Counted from the first letter of the stretch, positions 1 to 55,990 are shown. The stretch is DNA of 60,386 bases from a virus (IMGVR_UViG_3300048927_000480:1-60386); one strand, 5' to 3'. The notes: generated by a model from the letters alone, not told the origin. Numbers and translations: made by a program.

Positions 1-127
1 CCGTACGTGGCGCCTCGTGTCCGCGGTGAGCGGCAACCGTTACCTGGTGGTCAACCTGCGGACGGGGCGTGTGCTGGTGCTGGAGCACCGGAGCTTGACC
101 AACCTGTACTGAGTCCACAGTGGACGC
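1..127. repeat. Terminal exact duplication, copy 1 (identical to 60260..60386)
   Basis: Read directly: nt 1-127 equal nt 60260-60386. It carries the 3' end and TGA (110-112) of the CDS starting at 59958. Implies circular closure or terminal redundancy. Confidence 0.95.
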
Positions 128-189
128 GCAACCCGGGGCCCGAACCGGCCGCCGGGTTCGCGTGCTGCCCGGGAAACCGTGACCTCGCT

Positions 190-221
190 GTGACCCAACC
201 ACGTTACCCAGGTGGTAACGT
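190..221 (+). promoter_or_regulatory. Putative early promoter/operator P1 (GTGACC..ACGTTA-N9-TAACGT)
   Basis: Member of the conserved motif family. TAACGT (-10-like, TAnnnT) at 216-221. Perfect 10-bp inverted repeat CCACGTTACC/GGTAACGTGG at 199-208/214-223. Lies 37 nt upstream of ATG 259. Confidence 0.55.
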
Positions 222-258
222 GGTCCTCAGCAAGCCACCAGGGAGCAGGGAGACCACG

Positions 259-645
259 ATGGACGCCAAGAGCCGCGAAACCCTCCGCAATGCCGCGCTC
301 GCCGCCTCGCAGGACGGCCACGCACGCTGGCAGCAGCGCGTCACCGGCGAGCTCCCCACCGACCCGCGGCCGCCGGTCACCCGCAAGCCCCGGGGCACGT
401 CTGCCGCGCAACAGGCGGAGGAACTCACCGGCCTGCTCACCGAGAAGGTGGACCGGCTGCGCGAGGCCACGGAGACGGAGCTGCGGCACTACCTCGGCAA
501 GGCCCTGGCCGACCTCGCCGCCGACACCGGCGCCCGGATCGCCGAGGTGCAGTACGACGGCGAGCGCAGCGAGGTCACCGACGCCTACCGCGCCGGCCTG
601 CTCCTGGCCGCGCGTCTGGTGGCCGACCCCACGTTCGACTACTGA
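259..645 (+). CDS. Hypothetical protein (128 aa)
   Basis: ATG 259 preceded by GGGAGCAGGGAG. In-frame portion of ORF 7..645 downstream of the stop at 110-112. Protein-like composition; follows P1. Confidence 0.65.
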   Translation: MDAKSRETLRNAALAASQDGHARWQQRVTGELPTDPRPPVTRKPRGTSAAQQAEELTGLLTEKVDRLREATETELRHYLGKALADLAADTGARIAEVQYDGERSEVTDAYRAGLLLAARLVADPTFDY

Positions 646-694
646 CCGGTACGCGGGTCCGTGGCTACGGCCTCGGGCCCTTCGTTATGTCCCT

Positions 695-726
695 GTCACC
701 CAACCACGTTACCCAGGTGGTAACGT
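695..726 (+). promoter_or_regulatory. Putative early promoter/operator P2
   Basis: 31 bp (698-728) identical to 193-223. TAACGT at 721-726; inverted repeat at 704-713/719-728. Lies 35 nt upstream of ATG 762. Confidence 0.55.
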
Positions 727-761
727 GGCTCGCAGCACGCCCCCCGATCACGGAGGTCACC

Positions 762-986
762 ATGATCCTGTTCGCCGTCCTCGCGTCGCTCATCGCGACC
801 ACCCTGTTCGAGCTCCCCGTTTCCCCGGCCTACCACGCTCACCGGCTGCTGGCCGGTACCCGGCGGCAGTACCGCGTGGCCTGCCTCGCCTGGTGGCTGC
901 GGTTCGCGGCTCCGGTTGGCCGGGTGCGCGACACACGCCTCGCCTGGGCCCGGGCCCGCTACGTCGTCGAGACAGCGACGCGATGA
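762..986 (+). CDS. Small membrane protein, hypothetical (74 aa)
   Basis: ATG 762 with GGAGG about 8 nt upstream. N-terminal hydrophobic helix ILFAVLASLIATTLF. Confidence 0.65.
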   Translation: MILFAVLASLIATTLFELPVSPAYHAHRLLAGTRRQYRVACLAWWLRFAAPVGRVRDTRLAWARARYVVETATR

Positions 987-1123
987 CGCTGGTGTGGATG
1001 GTCACCGGCTCCGGCACCTGGCTCACGGCCCGCCTCGGGTGGAACGTGGCCGGGTGGCTGTACCGGGTACGGACCGGAGCGGCAGCCGGGCGCCGCGAGG
1101 ACCGCCGGAGCGTGGCACCGTGA
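983..1123 (+). CDS. Hypothetical small protein (46 aa)
   Basis: ATGA start/stop overlap with the upstream CDS. Hydrophobic Trp/Gly-rich N-terminus. Confidence 0.5.
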   Translation: MTLVWMVTGSGTWLTARLGWNVAGWLYRVRTGAAAGRREDRRSVAP

Positions 1124-1305
1124 GCCCCTGGTTCCGCCGTAGCTCCGCGCCCGGCGAAGGTGACGACGAGCAGCAAGCCAACCTCGACCGCGCTGCGGAG
1201 GCGGCCGGCGAGGCACGCAAGCGCCGTGGGCAGGACTGGCGCCGCGGCGAGAACGAGCGCGCGGCCCGTGAGGAACCGCAACCACCGGACACGCCTCACC
1301 CATAA
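1120..1305 (+). CDS. Hypothetical small charged protein (61 aa)
   Basis: GTGA start/stop overlap with the upstream CDS. Followed by the hairpin at 1329-1363. Confidence 0.5.
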   Translation: MSPWFRRSSAPGEGDDEQQANLDRAAEAAGEARKRRGQDWRRGENERAAREEPQPPDTPHP

Positions 1306-1328
1306 CTCCGTTTCTGAACAGCGTTACC

Positions 1329-1363
1329 AAACCCCGTCACGGGCTCCCTGTGGCGGGGTTTCG
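1329..1363 (+). terminator. Putative intrinsic terminator ending the early arm
   Basis: AAACCCCGTCAC ... GTGGCGGGGTTT hairpin (one G-U pair) followed by TTTCG. Lies immediately after the last + strand CDS. Confidence 0.55.
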
Positions 1364-1365
1364 TC

Positions 1366-1790
1366 ATGCCCGGGGGAGGGCCGTGTCAAGCCCCCTGGGG
1401 CGCGTGTCCCCGGGCAGTACGCCCCGGTGGGGTGGCCAACGCCGACGCCGGGAGACACGGGCCCCCAGGGGCGCGCTCCGGGCGCGGGAGGCGGGGTGCC
1501 GGTGGCCTGCGTAGCGCGGGAGCGGAGGCGCACGGCGTGGGCCGGTGTGCGGTACGGGATGTACCCGCTACCCGAGGGCCCCTGGGAGGGGTGGTCACCA
1601 GGAGCAGGGGCTCTGTGACGGGTGCTCACTCTGGGTACACGGGGGCGCAGGGTAACGGGACGGTGTGCTCTTACCGAGGGGCGTGCTGCACAGGGCCGGT
1701 GGGACGGGGGTGTCCTGGTGGCGTGGTGCGTAGAGGCGTGGATATGGGGTGCTCAGGGGCGGGTTACGTTTTGCGGCGCCTCTTCTCTGC
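1366..1790 (+). other. G-tract-rich, strongly G-over-C skewed non-coding segment
   Basis: By eye, about 30 runs of 3 or more G versus about 8 runs of 3 or more C on the + strand. The ORFs here translate to Gly/Arg-rich non-protein-like strings. Confidence 0.7.
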
Positions 1791-2161
1791 CCTCTCCACG
1801 ACGGTCCATCTGTTCATGTGCGCAGGTATGCATATCACGCCACGTGCACCATGTATCTACGCACCGTGGCCCCTGGTGGCTACTCTACGCACACATATGC
1901 ATGTGCATATAGGCACGCACAGTGATCAAGGTGAGGCGTGCCTCAGCTCACGCTCCGTGCACGCGCCGGCCGCTAACCGGAGGGCCCCTCCCCCGTCGAA
2001 ATGTTCAAGATCGGGTGAGCTTTGGCCTGCTCAACTTTCCTGCGCGCCAAATTTCTCGATTTCTGGCTAGTTGATCTTGATCCAGGCGCCTGTTGACTCG
2101 TTTTCCGACCCGAATCCAGCGTAGTTTCGTCAGATTTCGGCTAGCAGCGCTAGCGTTCACC

Positions 2162-2226
2162 GGCGCACCGATGCGACCTGCGATGGCGCACGTTTTCAAG
2201 ATCATGGCGCACCGGGACGGCGCACC
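2162..2226 (+). repeat. Iteron cluster A: 4 direct copies of GGCGCAC(C)
   Basis: Copies at 2162-2169, 2185-2191, 2206-2213 and 2219-2226. Confidence 0.85.
2193..2213 (+). repeat. 21-bp repeat TTTTCAAGATCATGGCGCACC, copy 1
   Basis: Exact second copy at 2835-2855. Confidence 0.9.
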
Positions 2227-2775
2227 GTATTTCGTCACCAAATCGGGAGCGCTGAGTGGCTCGAGGAGCTCCGGAGCGCCGGCGCGGGTGTTCCGGGGCC
2301 CTCGGGTCGGGTTTCGCGGCTCTCCGTGACGCTGAACCCCGGGAATCGAGCTTCTGGAGTCAGGTAGCTCGGCCGGAGATGCTGATTCCCGGGGCTCATC
2401 TGCACGTGTAACTACGGAACCCGTCTCCGAGGGTCCTGATACCGGAGACGTAGTTCCAACGGCTCTCAGAGGCGCTGAAGCGGTTGCCTCTGATGCCCGG
2501 CCTGGATGGCGACAGCGGAACACGCACCGGCGTACCTCGCCCAGCCGTCGCTAGAGCCGGATCCCCGCGCCCAGCCGGCTCGCTGAACCGCCGAATCCAG
2601 CTCCGGATCTCGTCCCGGACCCGTGTCGCGTCGATTCGAGGCCCGAATCTGGTTGAACGTTTGATGAGCCTCGCGTGTGTACGCGTGACGCGCACGGCGC
2701 TTCGCGCTTCCTCACGCTCCGGGGAGTCGCTGACGCTCCTCCCCTACGGCGAGAGCGGTGATGAGGCCCATGATC

Positions 2776-2889
2776 GGCGCACCGTGTTTACTGCGCACTT
2801 CCGGCGCACCGCTACGACCTGGGGAATGTCCGATTTTTCAAGATCATGGCGCACCGTGGCGCACCGGCGGCGCACCCCCGGCGGCGCAC
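2776..2889 (+). repeat. Iteron cluster B: 7 direct copies of GGCGCAC(C) (one variant TGCGCAC)
   Basis: Copies at 2776-2783, 2792-2798 (variant), 2803-2810, 2848-2855, 2858-2865, 2869-2876 and 2883-2889. Confidence 0.85.
2835..2855 (+). repeat. 21-bp repeat TTTTCAAGATCATGGCGCACC, copy 2
   Basis: Identical to 2193-2213. Confidence 0.9.
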
Positions 2890-2890
2890 G

Positions 2891-2907
2891 GTCAACTTCA
2901 GGTTGAC
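2891..2907. promoter_or_regulatory. Central palindrome GTCAAC-N5-GTTGAC between the direct and inverted iteron blocks
   Basis: Arms at 2891-2896 and 2902-2907. Sits at the switch point of iteron orientation. Confidence 0.6.
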
Positions 2908-2942
2908 GATTCACTCTCTGCAGCCGGGCGATTACAAATCAC

Positions 2943-3052
2943 GGTGCGCCGCGAAAGTGCGCCGCCGGTGCGCCGCGTTTTCGGGCATTTCAGACATTCG
3001 CCAGGTCGCCACGCTGCGCCGCCCGTGCGCCGGAAGTGCGCCACGGTGCGCC
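2943..3052 (-). repeat. Iteron cluster C: 7 copies in inverted orientation ((G)GTGCGCC)
   Basis: Copies at 2943-2950, 2957-2963, 2967-2974, 3014-3020 (variant), 3025-3031, 3036-3042 and 3045-3052. Confidence 0.85.
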
Positions 3053-3139
3053 TCACCCATTCGGAGTAACGCGAAAACGGCCCTAGGTCTAGACCAATTT
3101 TCGGGTGATTTGTCCGAGTTCTAGGCCTAGGAAGGCATG

Positions 3140-3175
3140 AAAAAGGACCCGGGAACGTGCAGAACTCCCGGGTCC
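3140..3175 (-). terminator. Putative intrinsic terminator for the leftward replication operon
   Basis: On the - strand: GGACCCGGGA-loop-TCCCGGGTCC (10-bp perfect stem, 3145-3154/3166-3175) followed by TTTTT (complement of 3140-3144). Confidence 0.65.
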
Positions 3176-3290
3176 CTCGTAAACAAGCTGGCCCGACCAT
3201 GGACCGCAGACACGAGAAAGGGCCCTCGTCCCGGTACAGCACGAAGACCCTTCCCCCGAGGTGACTCGTGAAGAGTCTCCGCAGACCAGG

Positions 3291-3395
3291 TTACCGATGG
3301 CGCCGACGCCGCTGGAACCAGCCCCAGGCATACCCTCCGGCCAGCAGGATCACGCCGGCCACGGCAAGCAGGTCATGCGGCCAGGTGCCGCTCAC
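3291..3395 (-). CDS. Possible micro-protein (34 aa): one TM helix plus poly-Arg tail
   Basis: GTGA start/stop overlap with the CDS ending at 3392. Sequence VSGTWPHDLLAVAGVILLAGGYAWGWFQRRRRHR. Below the ORF-track size cutoff. Confidence 0.4.
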   Translation of the reverse strand: MSGTWPHDLLAVAGVILLAGGYAWGWFQRRRRHR

Positions 3396-3967
3396 AGGTC
3401 GACTCCGTCCAGCTCGTGCAGGGACCGCCCGGCCGGGGTCAGCTGGTACCGCCGGACCTCGCCCTCGGCCGCGGGAAGCGCCTCGATGAGTTTGCGTTCG
3501 TAGATCGCGGCGAATGCATCGCGCCAATGATCCCAGGCCTGTCGAGGTACCGGTGGCACCGGTTCTCCTGCAGCTACTTCCAGGACTTCGTTGAAGTACA
3601 ACGGATGGTTCGCGCCAGCGAAAACAGCCAGAATCCGCTTTTCGTACTCCGCAGACTTGACACCCGAGGTAAGCTCAGACGCGTCTGCGCTTACCTCGGC
3701 ACTTTTAGCCTGGTTTTCCCGGAACTTTTTCTTGAGCGATTCCCAGCGCATCAACGCACACTGCACCTCGTTCAGGAGCGCGGCGTCCGCCGGACTAATG
3801 ACGCGCTCTCCCGGCTGCATTCGCGTCCAGCCCTTGGTCACCAGGTTCTCGGCCGCGGTCCGGTAAGCATCGAATCCGCTGTGCAACAGGCGCTGTTTCT
3901 GGAGCCGGCAGAGATCCTCGACGAGTTCGTCGGCGTCCCGCTGCGCCCGGTCGATTGCCTCACCCAC
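3392..3967 (-). CDS. Hypothetical protein (191 aa)
   Basis: GTG 3967 preceded by GGAG; overlaps the upstream stop by 8 nt. An alternative ATG at 4030 lies inside the upstream CDS. Protein-like sequence. Confidence 0.7.
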   Translation of the reverse strand: MGEAIDRAQRDADELVEDLCRLQKQRLLHSGFDAYRTAAENLVTKGWTRMQPGERVISPADAALLNEVQCALMRWESLKKKFRENQAKSAEVSADASELTSGVKSAEYEKRILAVFAGANHPLYFNEVLEVAAGEPVPPVPRQAWDHWRDAFAAIYERKLIEALPAAEGEVRRYQLTPAGRSLHELDGVDL

Positions 3968-5231
3968 GGTGAACACTCCTCGCGTCGAATGAACACGGAC
4001 AGTGATTATCGGCGCCCAGACCCACGTCACGGATTGTGACGGAACAGCCTGATCCGTCCTCGTAGTGCGAGCTGGACAGGTGGTGGCAGCTTGGGCACCG
4101 CGCCGGTGGCGTGTACGCCTTGTCGGCGTCGTCCAGTGCGTCCGCGACGAGATGCTGCGCGCACCGTGGCCATCCGCGTTCCGACCGACCGACGGCGGGC
4201 TTGCTCACCGGCGGTTCGAGCGCGCTGCAGGTGCCGCACGGGACGATGTCGCCGGTCTCGTCGGTGACCACCACGGCGGTCAGGTCCGCGTCGAGGGTGT
4301 CGCCGAGGGTCCACAGGTGTTCGACCTCGGCGGCCAGGATTTGCGAGGCCTTGACCAGCGCCTCGAGAGGAACCGGATCGTTGGTCGTGTTCGTGCTCGT
4401 GATCAGCTCGAGCGCCCGCGTGACCTCGGACGTGTACTTCTCGCTGGCCGGCAGCGTACGCGGCATCCGGAGCCGGAGCGTCTGCTTCAGCGCCATGACG
4501 TCGTCCGGATCCGGGCCGATTGGCCGGGTCTTGGTGAAGAACTTGCCCAGCAGCTCAAGCGCTCGCTCGATTCGCTCGTCGCGCTCCCGGATCGTGCGGC
4601 AGGCTTGCTCGTACGCCCAGATCGTCGGGTACCGCGGCGCGACGTCCGGGATCTCGGCCAGCACCGCGCGCAGGTCTTCGTCGGTGATCCGGCGATCGCC
4701 ACCCCGGCCGTCGGCGATGTGCGTCGCCCAGTTCCGGGCTCCGGCCCCGGTGCGGCCGAGGTCGAGCAGCTGCACGAAGTGTATAACGTTATACACACCC
4801 TCGGGCAGCTTGCGCTCCGGAATCGGACCGGGCACTTGCCGCGTGACGTGGCCGGGGACCTCGCTCATCTGTGTCAGCACCGGCCGCAGACCGGCCTTTC
4901 GCCGGAGCCGGTGCAGCATCCGCGGCATCTCGGCGCGCGGGAACGTGGGAAACGGCTCGATGTCCGGGACGTCGATGGCCTCCATCACCAGCTCGTAGAC
5001 GCCGGTCTCGGTGATTTCGAAGCCCCGGATTTCCGGGTCCCAGGTGAACTGGATCAGCTCGTTGTCGCGGTATGGGGCGTGCAGCCGGCTCCGGACACCG
5101 CGCTCGTACAGCGCCTCGGCCAGCATCTCGAGGCCGGCGCGGGTATACGGCGCGGAGAGCCCGGATCTGCCGAGGTCGTGAACGAGCTGCATCAGCTCGA
5201 GCGCGCGGTAGGGATTGTCGGTAGGGGTCAT
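3960..5231 (-). CDS. Hypothetical protein with Cys-rich C-terminus (423 aa)
   Basis: ATG 5231 forms an ATGA overlap with the upstream stop. Upstream of that ATG the ORF translates to a Pro/Arg-rich, non-protein-like string. C-terminal CxxC and CPSC motifs. Confidence 0.75.
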   Translation of the reverse strand: MTPTDNPYRALELMQLVHDLGRSGLSAPYTRAGLEMLAEALYERGVRSRLHAPYRDNELIQFTWDPEIRGFEITETGVYELVMEAIDVPDIEPFPTFPRAEMPRMLHRLRRKAGLRPVLTQMSEVPGHVTRQVPGPIPERKLPEGVYNVIHFVQLLDLGRTGAGARNWATHIADGRGGDRRITDEDLRAVLAEIPDVAPRYPTIWAYEQACRTIRERDERIERALELLGKFFTKTRPIGPDPDDVMALKQTLRLRMPRTLPASEKYTSEVTRALELITSTNTTNDPVPLEALVKASQILAAEVEHLWTLGDTLDADLTAVVVTDETGDIVPCGTCSALEPPVSKPAVGRSERGWPRCAQHLVADALDDADKAYTPPARCPSCHHLSSSHYEDGSGCSVTIRDVGLGADNHCPCSFDARSVHRG

Positions 5232-5620
5232 GGTGTCCTCGTGACGGTGGTGAGTTTGCGGACCTGCAGCACGCCGTCGACGATCCGGCGACCGTACAGG
5301 TGGTCGGGGCAGTAGTAGAACCAGAACTCCCGTGGCGAGTGCTGGTTGGCGCGGTTGAGCTTGGCCACTGGTACGCCATCGCACTGCCGGTGCGCGGGCC
5401 GGCCGCCGCGGCAGGCGTATCCCGGGGTCGGCTGGTCCAGCAACACCCACCGCGGACTCGTCTCGGGCATCCAGACGTACTCCACGCCGGGCGGCGCGTT
5501 GCGGTAGTCCTTGTAGTCGGTCAACCAGGCTTCGGCGTCGGCCAGTTTCCGGCTCATTGTGGCGCCGCGCAGGATTTCCGCGGCCCGCCGGAGCAGGTCG
5601 TCGTGCACCGGCTCAGTCAC
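5228..5620 (-). CDS. Hypothetical protein (130 aa)
   Basis: GTG 5620 forms a GTGA overlap with the stop of 5613..6026. The N-terminal extension to 5932 overlaps a better ORF in another frame. Confidence 0.65.
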   Translation of the reverse strand: MTEPVHDDLLRRAAEILRGATMSRKLADAEAWLTDYKDYRNAPPGVEYVWMPETSPRWVLLDQPTPGYACRGGRPAHRQCDGVPVAKLNRANQHSPREFWFYYCPDHLYGRRIVDGVLQVRKLTTVTRTP

Positions 5621-6026
5621 CGGTCGCACACCCTCCGACCCAGTGCCGTCCTTCACGCTTCCAAAGGCACTGTGGTGCCTTTTTCGCGTCCTCGACGGTC
5701 CAGCGCCGGCCGTCGGCGAGCGTGCTGTTGAACGCCAGGGCCCCGAATGGTGACAGCGCCACCAGGCCCTTGCAATGGTGGCACTGGGCGCCCGTGAGTA
5801 ATCGTTTGCCCAGTTCTTCGAGCGCCTCGATCGGTCCGCGCTGACGCTCGACGATGATCCGGGCGCCCTTGTACTGGACGCTGGCGTACCAGTCGGCCTG
5901 GTCAGGAGGCACGTCGTCGTGCAGGTAGCCAATGTCCAGGCCGGTCGCGCCGGTCCGTCCGACGAGGTCGACGGTGGCGATCATCGCGTCTTCTTGTTCC
6001 GGGGTGAATGGGGCTTTACTCGCCAC
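5613..6026 (-). CDS. Hypothetical protein (137 aa)
   Basis: Full ORF with protein-like composition. Tightly packed with its neighbours. Confidence 0.7.
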   Translation of the reverse strand: MASKAPFTPEQEDAMIATVDLVGRTGATGLDIGYLHDDVPPDQADWYASVQYKGARIIVERQRGPIEALEELGKRLLTGAQCHHCKGLVALSPFGALAFNSTLADGRRWTVEDAKKAPQCLWKREGRHWVGGCATGD

Positions 6027-7368
6027 GGCGGGCCTCCTTGTCCTGCTCGAGCACCCAGCTGATCGCCTGGTTCCGGGCGTCCAGCGACCCGGGCTTGCCG
6101 CCGAAGAGCGGGTGCTGGTGCTTCGGCGCGGAACCGTGCACCGCGAGCCAGCGGCCGTCGCCGCCGGCGTGCTCCGGGTCCAGCCACACCCAGCCGATGA
6201 CCTCGCTCTTGAGTCCGAGCACCTTCTCCGCGTCGTACGGCACGGTCAGCGGGCGGCCGTCCCGCAGCGCGTTCGCGCGTACCCAGGCCTCGGCGCCGTC
6301 GCGTGAGCCGAACCGCGGCCGGTTCTGCTCGTTGTCGTCAACGGCCGCGACCCACTCGCGCTCGTGTTCCAGGCAGTGCCGCGACTGCAGCTCCCAGACG
6401 TGGCCGATCACCGCGCCATCGGCATCCTCGATCGGCTGTTCCTCGTACCGGTCGTCTTCAGAGATGATCTTGATCTGGGACGGGTCCGTGCCCTGGAGCC
6501 AGTCGCTCATGCTCCGCGGGCCGCCGACGTTCTCCCCGAGTCGAACCGGCACCTGCTCGGCGGCCCGTCGGCGCGCGCCCGGGACCCAGCCAGCGTCGAC
6601 GAAGGCATCGGCCAGTGCCACCACGTGCTCCGCGTGCAGTTTCGCCCCCGTCACCTGCGGAAGCAGACGCCGCAGGTCCGCGGCGAACGCGGCCCGCCAC
6701 GAATCCACGGTGGTCAGCGCCTCGAGCTGCCCGCCGAGCATGACGAGGCCTTCGCCGGCCGCCGGAATCGATTCGAGAGCCGTCCCGATGACCGGGCCGG
6801 CGGCGAAGGCCTTCAGCGCCTTGTCCGTCGTCTGCTTGCCAGCATCACGGCATTCCTGGCACCGGAGGTCATTCGGGTCCGTGGCCGCCCGGGTGCGGTC
6901 GTCCAGCTGGCACACGCGGCACGGCACCTGGCCCGGGGTGAGCGGCCCGGTCTCGGCGAGGTCGTCGAACTTCGCCGCGAGCCGGTCCTGTAGACCGGGG
7001 TACCGCTGCTCGAGCGGCGATTCGGCGAAGGCCTTCAGCTCCGCGGCCGCGCCGAAGTTGCCCTCGCCGACCTCATCGGCCGCCATCCGGCCCGCCAGCT
7101 CGCGCATCTCGGCGTTCGGTTGCCGGAAACGTGCTGCTCGTTCGAGGGCATCTTCAGGTCCGGGCGTGTTGTCGAACAGCTCCGGCACCACCCCGACTGG
7201 CCGCGGCACCTCGCCGGACCCGGCGCAGCGGCCGATGCCCGGGAGATCGTGCGCGACCAGCGTTCCGGCAACCAGTGGGTATGACCCGCCGCAGCCATGG
7301 CACGGGAAGACCGGTTCCGGTGTTTCTGCAGCCTTCCGGAAGGCATTTGTCGTGTTTTCGTCCATCAT
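6016..7368 (-). CDS. Hypothetical protein with CxxC pairs (450 aa)
   Basis: ATGA overlap with the PrimPol-helicase stop. Motifs CHGCGG and CRVC..CQEC suggest zinc ribbons. Confidence 0.75.
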   Translation of the reverse strand: MMDENTTNAFRKAAETPEPVFPCHGCGGSYPLVAGTLVAHDLPGIGRCAGSGEVPRPVGVVPELFDNTPGPEDALERAARFRQPNAEMRELAGRMAADEVGEGNFGAAAELKAFAESPLEQRYPGLQDRLAAKFDDLAETGPLTPGQVPCRVCQLDDRTRAATDPNDLRCQECRDAGKQTTDKALKAFAAGPVIGTALESIPAAGEGLVMLGGQLEALTTVDSWRAAFAADLRRLLPQVTGAKLHAEHVVALADAFVDAGWVPGARRRAAEQVPVRLGENVGGPRSMSDWLQGTDPSQIKIISEDDRYEEQPIEDADGAVIGHVWELQSRHCLEHEREWVAAVDDNEQNRPRFGSRDGAEAWVRANALRDGRPLTVPYDAEKVLGLKSEVIGWVWLDPEHAGGDGRWLAVHGSAPKHQHPLFGGKPGSLDARNQAISWVLEQDKEARRGE

Positions 7369-10253
7369 TTGTCCTGTTCAGGTGTGGTTTCGCTGGTAGC
7401 GGTCCCGTCGGGGCGGAACCCGGTGAAACGGGTGGTCGACACGGGCCCCCGAGCCCGCGACGCCGCGGACCGGGCGGCTTCGGCCCGGCCTGCGTCGGTG
7501 ATGGCGTACTTCACTCCAGGACTGGGCATCTGCTGACCATGTTCGCCGGTGACGATGAGCTCGCCGACGTCCTCGATCTGGCCGCCGCGGACCAGCTCGT
7601 CGAACGCCTCTTTCCAGGCCGCGATCGTCGAGCCGCCGGCCCGCTTACGGGTGTCGCGCGCGGTGCTGATCGCCTTCGTCTTGGACAGCCCCTCGGGCGT
7701 GGCCATGAACACGACCAGCAGCTTTTCGCGCTTGGACACCGTCGAGTCGCGCAGGACCTCCGAGTGCTCGGACTCCGGGTCCTCCTGCTCGCGGGCGGTG
7801 ACGAGGTACCGCATCGGCAGCTCAAGCCGCCGGGCGTCGTCGCGCCAGACCTCGCGGTGAACCCAGTAGCTGCCCGAGGTCTGGCCGGAGACGTCGACGC
7901 GCAGGTCCACCGTCGTCCGGCCGGTCGGGTCGTCGGCGTACGGCGCCGCCGGCGTCCACTTGTCGACACCGACGTTGATCAGCACCCGGCCCCACTCGGC
8001 CAGGCCCGAGCCCGACCAGCGCTCGACGCCCTTGCCCTCGCCGCTTTTGTTCCAGTGCGCCGTGATCAACAGCGCCGAGTCCAGCTCCTGCGCGATGCCC
8101 TGGAGGTTCGAGAGCACGGTGCCCATCTGCGCGAGGTTCTTGCCGTCGGCGCCTTCGCCGGCGCTCATGTACCAGGGGTCGATGTAGACCAGGTCCGGGT
8201 TGAACACGACCAGGTCCTCGTACAGCCGGTTGACCGCCTCGGGCTGGTCGAGCTTGCTCGCGCCCTCCTGCACGTGGATCCGGCTCATCAGCTCCTCGGT
8301 GAGCTCGACGTGCTTGGCCGCCGCGACCGCCTCGATGCGATCGATGAACTCGACCTTGTCGCCCTCGTTATGCATCGCCGCAACGCGGCCTTGCCTCACC
8401 GGGATCAGCCCGAGCCACGGCACGCCGGCCGCGATCGACACGGCCAGATCGCACATCAGGAACGTCTTGCCGGCCTTGTACTGCGCGCCGAGCACGCCGT
8501 AGCTGCCCGCGCGCAGCACGCGGTCGATCAGGAACTCGGCCGGCTTCTCCTTCGCCGCCTTCCGCAGCAGCGCCAGCGGCTCGAACCCGCGGGCGGCCAC
8601 CCGCGCCGCATACGGGTACCGGTGCTCGGTCCACCGCCGCTCGGCCTCCGCCCGGACGACAAGGTCCTGGAACCGTCCCCGGACGAGGTTTTCAAAAGGG
8701 CCGTACGGATCGACCACCCCGGGCCCGGCCGCCAGCGCCGGCGGCACCATCGGCGGGACTGGCCCGGCGCCAGGTGGTGCGCCGACCGGCGGTAGCCCCT
8801 GCAGTCCCGGCGGTCCGGCGCTGGCCGGCTCGTACCCGAGCGTCTGCAGCCCGGCGGCGTCGAGTTGGTCCTCGTGCTGTTCGGCCCAGGCCTCGTACTC
8901 GGGAATGGCTGAAGTTTCCTGAACCTGCGCCGGACCGTGCGCCGCCGGTGCGCCATGATCGTGACAGGGGACGTTTCCGCTGGTCGAGTCGGTGCGCCAC
9001 GGTGCGCTCATGTACGCGGCGGTATCGTCAGCGCCACCGCGGTCGTAGTACCAGGTGTCGCCGTTCACGGGCGCCGCGGCGAGCGGGCCGGCCAGCGCCG
9101 ACGGCACGCCGGGGAGCGCCACCAGCGGCGGCGCTTCCCGCGAGATCCCCTCCGCACGGCAGGCCAGCGCGACGTTGCCGCCGTGGTCCCGCAGCGCCAC
9201 GTACTGGATCTTGGTGAAGGTCTTCTCGCCGAACGGCGTGTTGATCAGGAACTCGGGCGGGTTGTCGGTCCAGATGTGCAGCGGGCAGTGCCCCGGCGCG
9301 TCGTCGTACTCGCTGCAGCCGACGTCGTGCGCGGTGGCCGACTTGAACGAGGCGTGCACGCCGGGCGCCGTCCAGATCCCGCAGCCGCAGGAGTCGACGA
9401 TCCCGGTGTCGAACCAGCCGTCCGGCTCGAGCAGCTCGGCCCAGGTGACCGCGACCGACCAGCCGTCGATGTGCGCTTCGCCGGTGAACCCGCTCCCGCC
9501 GGCCGCCCGACGGCTCTCCTGCGCCTTCGCGCGCGAGCGCCGCTCGACGATGTAGTTGACGATCTGCTGGAGCAGCCAGTCCGGCGCCGGGTGGATGTCA
9601 CCGGTGAGCAGGTACGGGCCTTCCTCGCGCACCGAGGGCGGCACCAGCACCTGCCGGTTCGCCCACATCGCGATCCACCCGGACGGGTGCTTCATCGCCC
9701 CCTCGTCCCCGGGCAGGACGAGACTCGGCGGGAGCGCGAACCAGTAGTGGCCGCCGTTCTTGTGCTTCCAGGCACCATCGGCCGCCATCACCCCGGGCGA
9801 GGCCACCGTCATCCCGTACGGCAGCGGCTCACCGGTCGCCGCGAGCCAGCTGGCGGCGAAGGCCTCCTTCTCCGCGTCGGTGTCGACGTCGACGACGATC
9901 ACCCGGCTGGCGCCCAGCTCGACGCCGAGGTTGATCCGGCCGTGGTCGCGCACCAGCCGGCGGATGATCCGGTCGGAGTCCTTCTCGTCGGTGATCGCGT
10001 GCTTGATCGCGCACTCGTGCCGGACCAGGTCCCACCGGCGTCGGCCGGCCGCCCGAGCGCGCTCCTGCGCCTCCTGGTCAGCGCGCTTGACGTCGCGCTG
10101 GGGCAGCGTGCACATCGGCCGCTTGGTCCCCGGCAAGCACGGCACGATCGCGAAACCGGCCCGGATCGCGTACCGCGCGAGGTTGACGAGCGGATCCTCC
10201 CCGCCGGGCACTGCTGCGCCGAACACCGCGGCGAAGCTCGATTCCGATATCAT
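7365..10253 (-). CDS. Bifunctional primase-polymerase (PrimPol) / P-loop helicase fusion (962 aa)
   Basis: N-terminus: FAIVPCLPGTKRP, VVDVDTD (DxD) and GGHYWF, typical of PrimPol. Middle: Walker A GAQYKAGKT with RepA/DnaB-like RecA-fold context. ATG 10253 has GAGGAGAGG upstream; the ORF-track start at 10274 is TTG. Confidence 0.85.
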   Translation of the reverse strand: MISESSFAAVFGAAVPGGEDPLVNLARYAIRAGFAIVPCLPGTKRPMCTLPQRDVKRADQEAQERARAAGRRRWDLVRHECAIKHAITDEKDSDRIIRRLVRDHGRINLGVELGASRVIVVDVDTDAEKEAFAASWLAATGEPLPYGMTVASPGVMAADGAWKHKNGGHYWFALPPSLVLPGDEGAMKHPSGWIAMWANRQVLVPPSVREEGPYLLTGDIHPAPDWLLQQIVNYIVERRSRAKAQESRRAAGGSGFTGEAHIDGWSVAVTWAELLEPDGWFDTGIVDSCGCGIWTAPGVHASFKSATAHDVGCSEYDDAPGHCPLHIWTDNPPEFLINTPFGEKTFTKIQYVALRDHGGNVALACRAEGISREAPPLVALPGVPSALAGPLAAAPVNGDTWYYDRGGADDTAAYMSAPWRTDSTSGNVPCHDHGAPAAHGPAQVQETSAIPEYEAWAEQHEDQLDAAGLQTLGYEPASAGPPGLQGLPPVGAPPGAGPVPPMVPPALAAGPGVVDPYGPFENLVRGRFQDLVVRAEAERRWTEHRYPYAARVAARGFEPLALLRKAAKEKPAEFLIDRVLRAGSYGVLGAQYKAGKTFLMCDLAVSIAAGVPWLGLIPVRQGRVAAMHNEGDKVEFIDRIEAVAAAKHVELTEELMSRIHVQEGASKLDQPEAVNRLYEDLVVFNPDLVYIDPWYMSAGEGADGKNLAQMGTVLSNLQGIAQELDSALLITAHWNKSGEGKGVERWSGSGLAEWGRVLINVGVDKWTPAAPYADDPTGRTTVDLRVDVSGQTSGSYWVHREVWRDDARRLELPMRYLVTAREQEDPESEHSEVLRDSTVSKREKLLVVFMATPEGLSKTKAISTARDTRKRAGGSTIAAWKEAFDELVRGGQIEDVGELIVTGEHGQQMPSPGVKYAITDAGRAEAARSAASRARGPVSTTRFTGFRPDGTATSETTPEQDK

Positions 10254-10700: not shown

Positions 10701-12545
10701 TCATGCCGCGGCCCACCTTTCACCTAGGTCCAGCATGTCTGTCTTCAAAACGGGCACCCTCCCCGAGTGCTTGATGAGTCGTTCCGGCGGTGTCTGCATG
10801 ATCCGCCGGATGTCGTGAGCAGCCTCAGTCGCGCAGATGACCTCGTCGTGCATCGGGAAGTACACCGCGTCCGAAAGCCCGGCCTCGATGATTCCGATGA
10901 GCGCCTCGGCGAGCACGTCATACGCTGATCCCTGGACGAAGTAGTTCACGCCCTTGTGCGCGGCTACGCTTTGCCGGCCTTCGTACCAGCCGAGCGGGAT
11001 CGGTATGATACGACCGGAAACCGTTGGCACCAAACGGTAAAGCTTCGCTATCTCCCGGAGCTTGAAAGTGAACTGCAGCACCTCGGGCATCGTGCCGAAG
11101 ACCGCGTCCTTGATCCGCATTGCCTCGGCGGTGCCAACGCCGAGCTTTGACGCGGTGAGGTCCAGACCCTGTCCGTACAGTGTGCCGAGGGTCTGTGTCT
11201 TCGCCGGTTTCCGGCCGATGTGCGCGACGTTTCCGACGATCAGGTACAGGTCGTCGGTGCTGTTTTCGTACATCGAGATGATGCCGTTGTCGCCGGCAAC
11301 GTAGGCAATGGTGACCGGTTCGATCTGGGACCAGTCGATAGAGGTTCCGTTGCCGTCGAACAAGATGACGCCACGAGCCCCGGGCGGGAACTGCTGCAGC
11401 GGCGGGTCGCCGACCGACATGCGGCCCGTGGTGGCGCCGAAGTAATTGATGGTCGGGTGCAGGCGCAGATCACCGTTGACGTCGTACTCGGCCAGATCGC
11501 GTGCTTTGACAAGGTAATCCCGATAGGTCTTCGTCTTCTCCTTGTGCCAGTTGAATTCCTGCGCAACAGGGTGGAGCAGCTTGGCGAGGTCCTCTTTTTT
11601 CCCGGACAGGAGATCGGTTTTCTTGGTACGTGGGTAGTTGGCCGGGATCACACCTTGCGGCTCGAGCCAGCGCAACAAGCTCTGTGCGTTGCCGGGGTCG
11701 ATGTTCAGCCGTTCGAGCCGGGTGGCCTTCCGGTCCAGCTCGGCGGCGAACTGGACGTTGTAGCGGTCGAGGTAGTCCAGGTCGACGCGGTAGCCCTTGA
11801 TCGCCTTGGCCAGGCTCATCCGGTTCAGGCGCTGTTCGCGCTCGATCAGCCGCCAGGCCTCGCCGCCGGTGACACCCCACTCCGGGTACGGGTGGTCGGT
11901 GAGCCGGTGGTACGCCGCCGCCCGGAACGGCGCGTCGAGACGCGCCGTGACGATCGCGTCCGCCGCCGCGCCGCGGAGGTAGACCGGGCGATCGAGGTCG
12001 AACTCCCGGTACATCTGCTCCTTGCCGCGCATCCCGACTGCCTTGGCCGAGGTGAGCATCCCGTCCTTGTCGGTCGAGTAGCCCAGGTACCGCTCAGCGC
12101 AGTGGGCCAGGTTCTTCGAGACCAGGTTGTCCGGCTCGGCGAGCCGCGCGGTGAGCACGCCGTCGCGGATCTTCGCCGCGTGGTGCGGACGGATGAGCCG
12201 GTTCATCGCGAGGTTCGGCACATCGAAGCAGGAGTAGTGGAACACCAGCTCCTGCGCCTCGTCGATCATCCACCGGATGTAGTCCCATTGCACCGCGTCG
12301 CGCGGGTCGAGGATGACCGCGCAGTCCCCGTGCGGCAGCGGCGAGAAGATCACACACTTGAGGTTCCGCCCGGCTGCCTGCAGACCTTCGGACTCGATGT
12401 CGCAGGCCAGCGGGACGCGGCGCCGGATCAGCTCGATGCCGGCGTTGCACGCCGCGTCGCGGCCGACGTAGACCCAGGCGCCGAGGCTCTCGAGCCACTG
12501 CTTCCCGGTCCACGCCGGCCGCACGGGCGGGCGGAACCCCCTCAT
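10701..12545 (-). CDS. DNA polymerase I, family A, with 3'-5' exonuclease domain (614 aa)
   Basis: Exo I LACDIESEG. Motif A DWSQIEP. Motif B RKPAKTQTLGTLYGQG. Motif C MHDEV. Confidence 0.9.
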   Translation of the reverse strand: MRGFRPPVRPAWTGKQWLESLGAWVYVGRDAACNAGIELIRRRVPLACDIESEGLQAAGRNLKCVIFSPLPHGDCAVILDPRDAVQWDYIRWMIDEAQELVFHYSCFDVPNLAMNRLIRPHHAAKIRDGVLTARLAEPDNLVSKNLAHCAERYLGYSTDKDGMLTSAKAVGMRGKEQMYREFDLDRPVYLRGAAADAIVTARLDAPFRAAAYHRLTDHPYPEWGVTGGEAWRLIEREQRLNRMSLAKAIKGYRVDLDYLDRYNVQFAAELDRKATRLERLNIDPGNAQSLLRWLEPQGVIPANYPRTKKTDLLSGKKEDLAKLLHPVAQEFNWHKEKTKTYRDYLVKARDLAEYDVNGDLRLHPTINYFGATTGRMSVGDPPLQQFPPGARGVILFDGNGTSIDWSQIEPVTIAYVAGDNGIISMYENSTDDLYLIVGNVAHIGRKPAKTQTLGTLYGQGLDLTASKLGVGTAEAMRIKDAVFGTMPEVLQFTFKLREIAKLYRLVPTVSGRIIPIPLGWYEGRQSVAAHKGVNYFVQGSAYDVLAEALIGIIEAGLSDAVYFPMHDEVICATEAAHDIRRIMQTPPERLIKHSGRVPVLKTDMLDLGERWAAA

Positions 12546-13161: not shown

Positions 13162-13505
13162 TTGCTGCTCTCCTTGAGCTTCTCGAGGCGGTCTTGGCGT
13201 GCCTTGAGCACGCTGCAGCCCCAGGGGGCCTGAGTCCGCTTGTCGTTGGGGTTGGGGAAAACCCGATGCACGTCGTTGCATTCATCGCACTCGTACCACG
13301 CGATCGGTTTCTCATCGGGGTCGATCTCCGGAGCCTCGGCGGCCCAGAAGACCTTGTACTCGCCCAGGTAGTCCGCGATGAACTTGCGGAGCCGGACGCT
13401 GCCGTTTGACTGCTCCACCAGCGGCACGAGCTGGAGGAACGGCTGCCAGAGCTCGTCGGGCGCGAGGAACGTTCGCGCCTTGTCGCCGGGAGATGCTGCT
13501 GTCAT
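13158..13505 (-). CDS. Hypothetical protein with CDEC motif (115 aa); first gene of the leftward operon
   Basis: ATG 13505 (MTAASPGDK...). Adjacent to the AT-richer divergent control region. Confidence 0.65.
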   Translation of the reverse strand: MTAASPGDKARTFLAPDELWQPFLQLVPLVEQSNGSVRLRKFIADYLGEYKVFWAAEAPEIDPDEKPIAWYECDECNDVHRVFPNPNDKRTQAPWGCSVLKARQDRLEKLKESSK

Positions 13506-13528
13506 AAGTACGTACGCTAGCACAGATA

Positions 13529-13557
13529 TTGAGGAAATCAGTATCAACTGCTATGGT
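13529..13557 (+). promoter_or_regulatory. Putative rightward promoter TTGAGG-17-TATGGT
   Basis: -35 at 13529-13534 and -10 at 13552-13557, in the low-GC divergent intergenic region 13506-13585. Confidence 0.5.
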
Positions 13558-13585
13558 CGTGTTCCCCGAGCTCAGGGAGGTCCTG

Positions 13586-13714
13586 ATGACCGAGAAGCAG
13601 CGCTTCTGCGGCGGGATGAAGCCGGTCCGGAGACCGGAGCATGAAGAGGAGCCTCACCAGGCCCCTCCGCTGCCCGTGCCGGATCCACTGAAGCGGGACA
13701 CGCGGCCGCTGTAG
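13586..13714 (+). CDS. Possible micro-protein (42 aa)
   Basis: ATG 13586 with GGGAGG 6 nt upstream. Pro/charged-rich. Confidence 0.45.
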   Translation: MTEKQRFCGGMKPVRRPEHEEEPHQAPPLPVPDPLKRDTRPL

Positions 13715-13743
13715 AAGGGCACCGGAGAGGAATCAGTGGAGTG

Positions 13744-13836
13744 ATGCTTTCCCTTATCTCGATGGTGGTTTCGATTTTGGCTGCCATTGTGTCGATCGTG
13801 TCAGCCGTCATCACGAGCCGGATCAATCGCCGATGA
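13744..13836 (+). CDS. Possible single-TM micro-protein (30 aa)
   Basis: MLSLISMVVSILAAIVSIVSAVITSRINRR. ATGA overlap with the helicase start. GGAG upstream. Confidence 0.45.
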   Translation: MLSLISMVVSILAAIVSIVSAVITSRINRR

Positions 13837-16714: not shown

Positions 16715-17544
16715 CCGCCGCGGGGCTGGGCACCTACGTCTCGCCCCGCGGCACGATGTCCGGTGGCGATACCCAGCTCCGGGATCTCTTGATCGATATC
16801 ATTCTCGATCAGGAGAACAACCGTCCGCGGTCGATGCAGACTGCGCTCGGTCCCTCGGAGATCGGAGATCCGTGCCCGAGGAAACTCGCGTACAAAATCT
16901 CCGGGATGCCCGAGCCGGAGTCCTATAAGGATGATCCGTGGTTCGCGATCATCGGTACCTCGGTCCACACCACCATCGGCTCCGCGCTGGAGCGGCAGAA
17001 CACGCTGGCGCTGGCCCGAGGTGAGATGGCGCCGTGGCTGATCGAGCAGCGGGTCAACATCCGGACAGGACTCGACGGGTCGCTGGAAGGCAGCCTCGAC
17101 GCGTACAACTGGCTCACGCAACGGGTGATCGACCACAAGCTGGTCGGTGTTACCTCGCACCGGAAGTACCGGCGCTACGGACCGTCCAAGGTGTACCACA
17201 CGCAGATCCAGGCCTACGGTGTCGGAGCTGTCCGATTAGGACTCAAGGTAGACAAGGTGAGCATCGCCTTCTACCCGCGGTTCGCCGGCATCACCGAAGC
17301 ACTGTACGTCTGGACCGGGCCGTTCAAGCCCGAGCTGGTCGAGAAAGCCTTGAAGCGACTGGACATCATCACCGAGCTCGTCCGGCAGCTCAACCCTCTC
17401 GGTGACCCGGGCAAGTTCCGGGACATCAAGGCCGTGCCGTCGGAGGACTGCAGGCTGTGCCCCTGGCTCCGGCCGGGAACCGACACCGGGGACACGTGCC
17501 CCGGCAATCTCGCAGGCATGACACGAAAGACAGGAACGACATGA
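16711..17544 (+). CDS. Cas4/RecB-family PD-(D/E)xK exonuclease with Fe-S cysteines (277 aa)
   Basis: D..IDHK nuclease core and QIQAY motif. One N-terminal Cys (DPCPRK) plus C-terminal CRLCPW...C. Confidence 0.8.
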   Translation: MTAAGLGTYVSPRGTMSGGDTQLRDLLIDIILDQENNRPRSMQTALGPSEIGDPCPRKLAYKISGMPEPESYKDDPWFAIIGTSVHTTIGSALERQNTLALARGEMAPWLIEQRVNIRTGLDGSLEGSLDAYNWLTQRVIDHKLVGVTSHRKYRRYGPSKVYHTQIQAYGVGAVRLGLKVDKVSIAFYPRFAGITEALYVWTGPFKPELVEKALKRLDIITELVRQLNPLGDPGKFRDIKAVPSEDCRLCPWLRPGTDTGDTCPGNLAGMTRKTGTT

Positions 17545-55203: not shown

Positions 55204-55222
55204 CCGTGTCGATTTGCGCGGG

Positions 55223-55878: not shown

Positions 55879-55922
55879 ATGCTCCGGGGTCGCCGGCGCT
55901 ACCACAAGGATGAGACCGTTCT

Positions 55923-55954: not shown

Positions 55955-55990
55955 GGTCGTCAACAGCCCAGAGAGCACAGGGAGAACGCA

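Follow-up and report, generated by a model that had tools for sequence, protein, structure and literature searches.

A conserved two-kilobase non-coding locus with opposed iteron arrays, a candidate replication origin in a group of metagenomic phages

The largest gene-free gap of the circular virus genome IMGVR_UViG_3300048927_000480:1-60386 (hereafter the window, the whole analysed stretch of 60,386 nt) lies at positions 1306-3290, with the next gaps in the gene list of the window measuring ~0.65 kb or less, and holds a non-coding locus that we read, with about even confidence, as an iteron-type replication origin or replication-control locus. The reading is suggested by phased, opposed iterons round a spacer of fixed length and lower GC content, by the position of the locus at the end of the replication operon, by a further iteron array within a replication gene, by iterons that differ between lineages, and by a replicase with a winged helix of its own. 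In every relative the locus stands directly downstream of an operon with DNA polymerase A, a primase-polymerase fused to a helicase (Prim-Pol) and four conserved genes without known family.

Conservation and coding potential of the locus

Relatives were gathered via three routes, a scan of IMG/VR, homologues of the 212-aa product of the neighbouring gene and homologues of Prim-Pol. The IMG/VR scan returned one 59.2-kb relative, whose contig ends overlap by 14 nt inside the G-skewed block of the locus (G block). Homologues of the 212-aa protein led to contigs of 59.2, 59.8, 47.5, 22.1 and 11.4 kb with the entire locus, together with short contigs stopping in it, and a pattern scan of metagenomes to one further full copy. 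The search with full-length Prim-Pol recovered the sister-lineage genomes L019, L020 and L021, with Prim-Pol proteins 55-63% identical; a homologue search with the Prim-Pol C-terminus alone gave no match. The main clade alignment comprises eight genomes, and L019, L020 and L021 were treated as sister lineages.

Eleven related metagenomic phage genomes, in three lineages, carry a gap of 1.6-2.2 kb at the corresponding convergent junction, and its modules follow one order in all of them. Synteny was found in all relatives, the replication operon being followed by the homologue of the 212-aa protein, usually a small open reading frame (ORF), the gap without consistent genes, and the convergent small genes. 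Across the gap the order is constant: + strand terminator, G block, C-skewed block, small hairpin, low-GC block (CTGCGCGCCAAATTTCTCGATTTCTGG.AAGTTGATCTTGA, 45% GC at 2049-2108), array A, folded elements, conserved blocks, core stem-loop, array B, spacer, array C, low-GC palindrome block and - strand terminator (Table 1). Column conservation in the eight-genome alignment is 0.65-0.94 over 1600-3150, with its peak at 2700-2950 and blocks at 86-94%; 2692-2791 is 97% identical to the IMG/VR relative, compared with ~67-83% at the nucleotide level for the neighbouring genes, replication genes included. Since the region is kept with the same module order in eleven genomes and contains blocks above the neighbouring genes in identity, it is under selection without coding and is not spacer DNA. 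Among 185,579 reference genomes of bacteria and archaea, no exact copy of the core motif and thereby no prophage copy was found, and the locus DNA showed no similarity to GenBank phages in near or distant search modes. Two distant Prim-Pol relatives, Gordonia phage CloverMinnie and Mycobacterium phage Phlyer, have no comparable gap.

The + strand genes end at 1305 and the - strand operon ends at 3291, so that the locus lies exactly where the directions of transcription converge, and each unit ends in an intrinsic terminator. For the + strand terminator, 1322-1372 folds at -28.3 kcal/mol (z = -4.9 against shuffled sequences) with UUUCGUC after the stem; in the eight aligned clade members the stem (AACCCCGTCACGG / CCGTGGCGGGGTT) is conserved and the loop variable, the terminator being kept among relatives with some changes in its stem. 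With an A-run and a T-run on its two sides, this terminator could act in both directions. For the - strand terminator, 3136-3186 read on the - strand folds at -24.3 kcal/mol (z = -4.6 against shuffled sequences) with UUUUUCAUG after the stem, which is preserved by compensatory changes among relatives.

The locus between the terminators is non-coding. An unrecognised or decayed protein-coding gene could be invoked for its ORFs, which stay open for up to 234 aa, but is extremely unlikely in view of the following. The GC frame plot is flat over 1300-3300, whereas the flanking genes spread by 0.3-0.55 between codon positions. The ten longest ORFs of the region had no match in Pfam or PHROG at E <= 0.1, and a tblastn search of all window proteins against the region, made as a test for pseudogene remnants, matched only the iteron-encoded stretch of Prim-Pol. 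Mismatches against the closest relative are phase-neutral in the region (143/153/160 by phase, p = 0.62) and strongly phased in the Prim-Pol gene (134/91/252, p = 1e-19). Indels against the same relative measure 1, 12, 44, 22, 11, 11, 8, 11 and 10 nt, most of them not multiples of 3, and gene callers put differing ORFs on differing strands across relatives.

The original prediction, made on the window by itself, had described about 2 kb without a gene between two convergent, terminated transcription units, and here the frame plot, the family searches of the ORFs, the pseudogene test and a substitution pattern that is not codon-like all agree with it. Both hairpins that it named as terminators fold well beyond their shuffled counterparts with a U-run on the expected strand, both being conserved in relatives as well, and the region is kept in relatives instead of being absent. 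Its modules (a G-tract block, an AT-richer palindromic block, inverted repeats, a nested hairpin and iteron arrays) were all recovered, and the 'GAP' tripeptides, which it explained as the iteron read in frame, are just that, being genuinely translated in the Prim-Pol linker. The proposal of a cis-acting function or a non-coding RNA gains support in both its parts, in that selection without coding, the layout of the iterons and covarying single-strand folds speak for one or the other. That earlier reading had missed the orientation of the arrays, the intragenic array and the link to the replication proteins.

The locus is also a systematic assembly breakpoint. Nine independent assemblies of relatives break inside it (L010, L011, L012, L016, L017, L018, L005, the IMG/VR contig and L021), six of them within arrays B or C at differing points and three within the G block, one ending in 26 C. 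Scattered breaks of this kind are expected where repeats and poor coverage hamper assemblers and give no evidence of fixed genome ends. Physical genome ends at these positions were discounted, the break points differing and lying in repeats or ending in a poly-C artefact. In the window and in two or three relatives, assembly ran across the locus without a break.

Iteron arrays, candidate binding proteins and folded elements

The iteron reads GGCGCAC(C/G). Of the 33 GGCGCAC copies in the window, 17 are in or just beside the region, 16 of these within 2162-3052 (~900 bp) and one at 1527 in the G block. Arrays B and C, both conserved in all eight clade members, are inverted relative to one another and stand head-to-head, six or seven + sites facing six or seven inverted sites; they form inverted copies of a larger unit of ~120 bp, and array B includes the unit TTTTCAAGATCATGGCGCACCG. 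Array A lies 640 bp left of the opposed arrays, belongs to a direct repeat with array B (2160-2219 and 2801-2861) and is found in six of the eight clade members, missing from L004 and L013. The spacing between copies is most often 10-11 bp (39/98 intervals in the eight genomes).

The spacer between arrays B and C has 50-57% GC, compared with 66% for the genome, and holds a palindrome (GGTCAAC-N5-GTTGACG with a variable loop) as well as the conserved ACTCTCTGCAGCCGGGCGATTACAAATCAC. Its motif ACTCTCYGYA and the AT-rich centre (AAAAAAGAGACTCTCCGTAG) are kept in L019 and L020, and L021 has the close variant GAGACTGTCGGTAG / ACTGTCGGTA. We regard this spacer as a candidate site of melting and loading. 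Inter-iteron sequence in one array does not change in step with its counterpart in the other (the IMG/VR relative has AAAACATGCC in B and GAGATGTCTGA opposite in C), by which a long RNA hairpin between arrays B and C was ruled out; the pattern indicates that the iterons act at the DNA level. To the right of array C, the palindrome GGTCTAGACC in the low-GC block is shared by L019, L020 and L021 and by the majority of the clade, some of whose members carry it with a single changed base; the block is a candidate operator or host-factor site.

A fourth array, D, lies within the Prim-Pol gene in its sense orientation, in the part encoding the linker that joins the primase domain to the helicase domain, where its translation reads ...GAPxAH...QDHGAPxAH. 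Four genomes have this array (the window, the IMG/VR relative, L007 and L009). The sister lineages use other iterons, GGAAGCA(A) in L020 and L021 and GGGAAC/GGTAC in L019, and their loci nonetheless keep the G-skew block, the block TTTTCTGCGCGC(A/C)...TTT, a hairpin of the GAGGGTC...TACC type, the core loop, the opposed arrays, the AT-rich centre, GGTCTAGACC and both terminators. Since the iteron changes between lineages while the layout stays, it would seem to serve as a lineage-specific address read by a lineage-specific protein.

Two proteins are candidates for this role. The C-terminal part of Prim-Pol is predicted to form a winged helix (AlphaFold2 model H-H-H-strand-strand, predicted local distance difference test score 77-90), whose top fold matches in the PDB are RTP, PadR/LmrR and linker histones, with weak E-values of ~0.01-0.1 and a probability of 1.0; sequence searches of the PDB gave no matches. 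The last 224 residues of Prim-Pol are 80-86% identical among seven phages sharing GGCGCAC, and in lineages with other iterons the winged helix differs mainly in its wing and in the loop that precedes helix 3. L009 has an altered wing (QLLSVP for QQMPSP) together with the variant iteron GGCGCACGG, a single case and only suggestive. The second candidate is the 212-aa protein adjoining the locus, with a winged helix of its own by predicted fold and syntenic homologues in every relative (43-59% identical over the aligned part within the GGCGCAC clade, 31-33% in the sister lineages). We slightly favour the Prim-Pol domain over the 212-aa protein as the putative reader of the iterons. One member of the 212-aa family (P0004; L006, 6001-7044) is 347 aa long, with two tandem C-terminal winged-helix modules. 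The gene for the 212-aa protein also contains a 36-bp near-perfect palindrome (CCGAGGTAAGCTCAGACGCGTCTGCGCTTACCTCGG, 3664-3699), which encodes the highly conserved peptide AEVSADASELTSGVK of the family and, in two relatives, is 94% conserved as DNA. This palindrome may be an additional cis site within the gene, or may simply follow from the peptide that it encodes.

Between array A and array B the locus is rich in folded elements, for which strand preference was judged by counts of G-U against A-C cells in covarying helices; a choice of strand from region-wide consensus folding energies was discarded as confounded by local G/C skew. Hairpin H1 folds at -36.7 kcal/mol on the + strand (z = -5.0) and at -22.7 (z = -2.2) on the - strand, shows compensatory changes in 6/16 pairs and has 19 G-U cells against 2 A-C cells; the helices at 2318-2382 have 26 against 5. 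RNAalifold on 2262-2500 gave 58 pairs, 12 of which show two-sided changes, compared with 5.6 +/- 1.6 in shuffles (0/500 reaching the observed number), and 90.5% of cells are paired, compared with 35-50% when the partners are slid. For eight related sequences, this covariation is good but not definitive evidence of conserved pairing. Against a covariance model of 2262-2382, every clade member scored 114-132 bits on the + strand, and no score on the - strand exceeded 41 bits.

The core element abutting array B has the highest column conservation (0.94). Its inner stem and loop do not vary, and its outer stem covaries (at pair 25-77, five sequences have UA and three CG); at pair 10-16, six sequences have GC and two CG. 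L019, L020 and L021 carry the loop motif GGGAG(T/C)CGCTGACGCTC on outer stems that are wholly different. The stem-loop exposes or sequesters CUCCUCCCC on the + strand, which is anti-Shine-Dalgarno-like, and GGGGAGGAG on the - strand, which is Shine-Dalgarno-like. Rfam had no match at gathering score in the whole window, and at E <= 10 gave only sub-threshold terminator-like or hairpin-like hits. The folded elements may act as RNA or as unwound + strand DNA.

The left part of the locus is distinguished by composition. The G block carries the strongest G skew of the genome (maximum 0.278, in a 425-nt window starting at 1349), and each of the eight clade members, as well as L019 and L020, shows a skew of +0.3 to +0.5 that gives way abruptly to C skew. 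Conserved G-quadruplex motifs were ruled out in this block, where the skew alone is conserved and the canonical motifs are not. A likeness of 1611-1655 to a 62-nt motif repeated upstream of + strand genes (see below) was dropped in view of a different spacing and a lack of conservation at the -10-like T. The low-GC block at the left of array A, recognisable in the loci of all three sister-lineage genomes, is possibly an unwinding element or a host-factor site.

Table 1. Features of the non-coding locus and of the replication genes beside it (positions in the window; strand left empty where none is assigned).
Feature	Position	Strand	Description or evidence
Intrinsic terminator ending the + strand small-gene operon	1326-1366	+	fold, z-score, conservation
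G-skewed block	1366-1790	+	46% G, 28% C; sequence poorly conserved, composition conserved
C-skewed lower-GC block	1796-1935		short palindromes CATATG, ATGCAT and TGCATGTGCA; begins with invariant CCACGACG
Small conserved hairpin AACCGGAGGGCCCCTCCCCC	1975-1995		conserved blocks 1975-1983 and 1985-1994; also in L019, L020, L021
Strongly conserved low-GC block CTGCGCGCCAAATTTCTCGATTTCTGGCTAGTTGATCTTGA	2036-2083		among the lowest-GC windows of the genome
Iteron array A	2160-2232	+	GGCGCAC at 2162, 2185, 2206, 2219, all +
Hairpin H1, conserved apex CCGGCGCGGGTGTTCCGG	2262-2305	+	pairs well solely on the + strand
Multi-helix element, including inverted repeat 2338-2347 / 2384-2393	2318-2395	+	conserved G-U pairs
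Nested hairpin	2408-2458	+	conserved loop GAGGGTC...TACC, covarying stems; recognisable in sister lineages (L019, L020)
Conserved blocks GCCCGGCCTG, GCACCGGCG, CTCGCCCAGCCG, GAGCCGGA, CCAGCCGGCTC	2495-2585
Near-invariant core: small hairpin (2697-2707) and long stem-loop with invariant CGCTCCGGGGAGTCGCTGACGCTCCTCCCCT	2696-2770		abuts array B
Iteron array B	2772-2892	+	GGCGCAC at 2776, 2803, 2848, 2858, 2869, 2883; degenerate TGCGCAC at ~2792
Central spacer between arrays B and C	2890-2943		52-54 nt in 8/8 clade members
Iteron array C	2942-3054	-	GGCGCAC at 2944, 2957, 2968, 3025, 3036, 3046; degenerate copy at ~3014
Low-GC block	3084-3133		45% GC; palindrome GGTCTAGACC (3086-3095), conserved GATTTGTCCG
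Intrinsic terminator of the - strand replication operon	3143-3180	-	fold, U-run, compensatory changes
Membrane peptide of 34 aa, last - strand gene	3291-3395	-	read from sequence; conserved in relatives
212-aa protein adjoining the locus	3392-4030	-	C-terminal PadR/MarR-like winged helix by predicted fold
Four genes without known family	6016-7368, 5613-6026, ~3960-5240, 3392-4030	-
Prim-Pol and AAA_25 helicase, 969 aa	7365-10274	-	PF09250 and PF13481
Predicted C-terminal winged-helix domain of Prim-Pol/helicase	7500-7733	-	~aa 848-925 of 969
Iteron array D in the Prim-Pol/helicase gene	8937-8998	-	three exact copies, preceded by a one-mismatch fourth, and CAAGATCATGG unit
DNA polymerase A (family A)	10701-12545	-	domain match

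Bases 1-127 of the window are identical to 60260-60386, an overlap left by circular assembly with k = 127, so that the true unit measures 60,259 bp (65.9% GC) and genes at both window ends are continuous. The replication operon occupies the - strand from ~13.5 kb down to 3.3 kb, and the remaining genes all lie on the + strand, from ~13.8 kb round the circle to 1305. Genes for the terminase large subunit (18736-20484, 15 kb from the locus), portal, major head protein, tape measure and RuvC resolvase identify a tailed phage, and a lysin and a DEAD helicase are also encoded; no small-terminase gene was recognised anywhere in the genome, none of the ~60 scanned proteins has an integrase, repressor, ParA or ParB domain, and a search for tRNA and tmRNA genes found none. 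The closest Prim-Pol matches from cultured phages (38-41% identical) belong to Nocardia, Gordonia, Rhodococcus and Mycobacterium phages, and the host is therefore probably an actinobacterium. Micromonospora sp. NBC_00362 and Plantactinospora solaniradicis also encode Prim-Pol/AAA_25 proteins (P0073, P0074) on their chromosomes, with 47% identity over the N-terminal 38%, which gives a weak clue to Micromonosporaceae-like actinobacteria as hosts of the phage group.

Elsewhere in the genome, a 62-nt motif occurs four times (178-239, 683-744, 55911-55972, 59877-59938), each copy upstream of + strand small genes; the palindrome CCACGTTACC-N5-GGTAACGTGG is perfect in two copies and degenerate in the remaining two. 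The motif is found in the relatives L003 and L013 as well, and resembles a promoter or operator that recurs along the gene block running into the non-coding locus. A gap upstream of the first 62-nt motif holds two 38-nt direct repeats 42 nt apart (55199-55278, GATG.CCGTGTC...ATCCGCCCACCGTT). Just upstream of the large terminase gene, the gene at 17457-18506, whose sole family match is a PHROG of unknown function, contains degenerate repeats of ~63-69 nt (18040-18396) that encode a Pro/Gln/Ala-rich C-terminal tail of the PQQY type. The divergent intergenic region at ~13400-13830, where the GC content of 60-nt segments (40% at 13504) and the AT skew (13414) reach their genomic minima, probably contains divergent promoters and is the main alternative place for an origin.

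The locus as a proposed replication origin, and other explanations

If the locus is an origin, a winged-helix protein of the phage (the Prim-Pol C-terminal domain or the product of 3392-4030) would read the iterons, head-to-head occupancy of arrays B and C would distort and open the spacer, and the helicase part would be loaded onto the opened spacer in both directions, with Prim-Pol laying the first primers and the family-A polymerase extending them. Arrays A and D would be auxiliary sites, serving looping or handcuffing, control of initiation, or pausing of forks as proposed for oriR of phage SPP1. The folded elements left of array B (hairpins 2262-2452 and stem-loop 2696-2770) would act single-stranded in one of two ways. 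A + strand transcript entering the arrays could activate or prime the origin, as with ColE1 RNA II and in cluster A mycobacteriophages; alternatively, hairpins extruded from the unwound + strand could be assembly or priming signals for Prim-Pol, as proposed for the stem-loop of pRN1. The G block, if transcribed on the + strand, would favour a stable RNA-DNA hybrid, and read on the - strand would be a C-rich, Rho-type termination zone.

Measured against known origin types, the locus has the clustered short copies at helical-repeat spacing of iteron origins. Possible unwinding elements are the spacer and the 45% GC blocks at 2049 and 3084, with a clearly AT-rich centre in the sister lineages only. 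Secondary structure conserved on one strand, as in RNA-based origins, was found at 2262-2500, and both hallmarks of the pRN1 type are present, namely a Prim-Pol with helicase and C-terminal winged helix, although of a differing helicase family, and a conserved, covarying stem-loop downstream of the replication operon (2696-2770).

Several observations weigh against an origin at this place. Convergence of transcription, at which the locus lies, marks the terminus and not the origin in cellular replicons, and known phage origins measure ~0.1-0.5 kb, compared with 2 kb here. The spacer of this clade is only moderately AT-enriched, and the GC minimum of the genome falls in the divergent intergenic region at ~13.5 kb, which could be the true origin. 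DnaA boxes are not enriched in the window (TTGTCCACA with <=2 mismatches has 124 hits vs 110 expected, one of them in the region), and the cumulative skews of GC and AT track transcription, with no signal attributable to replication. A scan of 1-6000 for sigma-70-type consensus promoters was empty, although actinobacterial or phage promoters may escape such a scan. Searches with the covariance model of 2262-2382 missed the sister lineages, array D is missing from the L020 lineage, and the G block together with 1800-2260 (~1.3 kb) has no role in the proposed origin.

A stronger form of the proposal, in which ~1600-2790 would encode a group-specific, multi-domain + strand RNA of 0.5-1.2 kb that is absent from Rfam, is transcribed into the opposed arrays and works with the replicase as a protein-plus-RNA origin, is possible but on balance doubtful; if true, it would represent an undescribed hybrid of the iteron type and the RNA type of ColE1 and the mycobacteriophages. 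That the locus instead consists of one or more stand-alone structured RNA genes unrelated to replication (for host takeover, anti-defence or translational control), with the iterons as operators for the neighbouring winged-helix protein, we consider unlikely. Covariation and strand-specific pairing at 2262-2452, the near-invariant stem-loop with its anti-Shine-Dalgarno-like and Shine-Dalgarno-like strings, the terminators bracketing the locus like an independent unit, and PadR/MarR-like folds, which are typical of transcription regulators, would all suit such genes. Yet the promoter scan was empty and Rfam gave no family even at E <= 10 beyond hairpin-like noise; 12-17 opposed sites with a fixed spacer, joined by an array in Prim-Pol, are unlike the usual operators of small RNAs; and the lack of mutual covariation between the spacers of B and C shows that the arrays are not one long RNA hairpin.

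Short repeated sites round a bendable centre resemble terminase sites of the cosB or pac type, and a packaging or genome-end region (pac, cos or the boundary of a terminal repeat), its iterons bound by a small terminase or end-binding protein, would also account for the many contigs of relatives that end in the locus; the lack of a recognised small-terminase gene leaves room for it. We nevertheless judge it distinctly unlikely, as the breaks show the scattered pattern of assembly failure, some genomes including the window assemble straight through, the large terminase gene is 15 kb away while replication genes adjoin the locus, and one array copy sits inside the Prim-Pol gene. Improbable as well is a replication terminus or fork trap combined with a transcription insulator, with polar fork arrest like that of Bacillus Ter/RTP. 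The position at the convergence point, with the lowest GC content of the genome at the divergence point (13.5 kb), the two opposed groups of sites and the best structural match of the Prim-Pol winged helix, which is RTP (1f4k), fit this explanation. The RTP match is weak (E = 0.013) and shared with generic winged helices of the PadR type, however, and the intragenic array, the folded elements and the fixed spacer are left unexplained; phages are not known to have fork traps. A further argument for arrest is that gp38 bound to SPP1 oriR is thought to stall forks (PMC6316719). We regard it as very improbable that the locus is a partition site resembling a centromere (parS) or serves to maintain a plasmid prophage. 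Arrays of 7-9-bp repeats flanking a unit do recall parS-L and parS-R of the parABS mycobacteriophages, which have an RNA-based origin adjacent (PMC7157519), but the scanned proteins include no ParA, ParB, integrase or repressor domain, beside the locus or elsewhere, the core motif has no exact match in the reference genomes, and there is no sign of lysogeny.

With actinobacteriophage replication origins almost unmapped (PMC7157519), the locus is a concrete, testable origin candidate for a group of ~58-60 kb soil phages known from metagenomes, and it ties a fused Prim-Pol/helicase/winged-helix replicase to defined DNA sites. Iterons that differ between lineages offer a ready-made specificity experiment with cognate and non-cognate arrays and winged helices. 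The folded elements, conserved above the proteins of the phage, could be a new structured RNA or a new single-strand initiation signal, and a minimal replicon from the locus could serve as a plasmid tool in high-GC Actinobacteria. The breakage of assemblies at the locus is worth knowing when such genomes are closed.

Comparison with known replication systems

In phage SPP1, oriL lies inside gene 38 and oriR is intergenic, 'bracketed between transcriptional signals', both being bound by gp38 (PMC6316719). SPP1 and the locus are alike in having at least two repeat arrays, one within the gene of a replication protein and one intergenic, in repeats that adjoin a lower-GC unwinding element, in the locus a candidate one, and in an intergenic copy that may act on passing forks. 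SPP1 differs in using a separate origin-binding protein, a loader, a DnaB-type helicase and the host replisome, whereas the phage described here has a helicase fused to Prim-Pol and winged helix and its own polymerase A; the arrays of the locus are opposed and not only direct, and the locus is 4-10x larger and carries covarying folded elements.

Origins of phage-inducible chromosomal islands (PICI) consist of two iteron sets round an AT-rich centre next to pri-rep (PMC6092414). In these islands, including the Staphylococcus aureus pathogenicity islands (SaPI), as in the locus, two iteron sets flank a melting region, in the locus a candidate one, 3' of primase and replication-helicase genes, and iterons vary together with the alleles of the replication protein. 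The PICI origin belongs to the same module as rep (pri-rep-ori) and has a pronounced AT-rich centre; in contrast, four genes intervene in the phage, the centre has 50-57% GC in the clade, and the locus has additional arrays and extends leftward by 1.4 kb of non-coding DNA.

The sole origin of lambda has its iterons within the initiator gene, where a linker between domains is encoded, and array D likewise occupies the linker-coding part of a replication gene; the phage differs in that its larger arrays are intergenic and that the L020 lineage has no intragenic copy. The location of lambda ori inside gene O is cited in PMC7157519.

A parallel in protein architecture is the alpha protein of satellite phage P4, which unites primase, helicase and a C-terminal winged-helix origin-binding domain and whose octamer is repeated in ori and crr. 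One polypeptide with all three activities and an iteron in two clusters several kb apart are common to P4 and the phage. The primase and helicase of P4 are of other families, and the P4 origin-binding domain was absent from the top 50 fold matches of the Prim-Pol winged helix, with no sequence similarity detected. Phage P4 is mentioned in PMC6092414.

For the replicase of the pRN1 type, with Prim-Pol, helicase and winged helix, assembly has been proposed on a stem-loop that lies past the end of its operon and is the putative origin (PMC4234260). The three-domain replicase, a conserved stem-loop past the replication operon and near the terminator, and covarying stems with conserved flanks are shared with the locus. 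In pRN1, however, the helicase is of superfamily 3 (that of the phage is AAA_25, RecA/RepA-like), and there are no iteron arrays; in the phages the sequence of the stem-loop itself is the most conserved part.

RNA-based origins exist in actinobacteriophages, in mycobacteriophages with non-RepA parABS (PMC7157519). With these and with ColE1 RNA II the locus has in common an ORF-free region beside arrays of short repeats and strand-specific pairing, and a family-A polymerase would be available for extending an RNA primer. They differ in that their transcription has been shown and no initiator protein is needed, whereas the phage encodes a primase-helicase. Iteron, intragenic and RNA-linked origins are thus already known, and the locus belongs with them in kind; new are the composite 2-kb unit of opposed, auxiliary and intragenic arrays with covarying hairpins, stem-loop and G block, the association of such a locus with a fused Prim-Pol/RecA-type helicase/winged-helix protein, and the phage group itself, which is without a cultured member.

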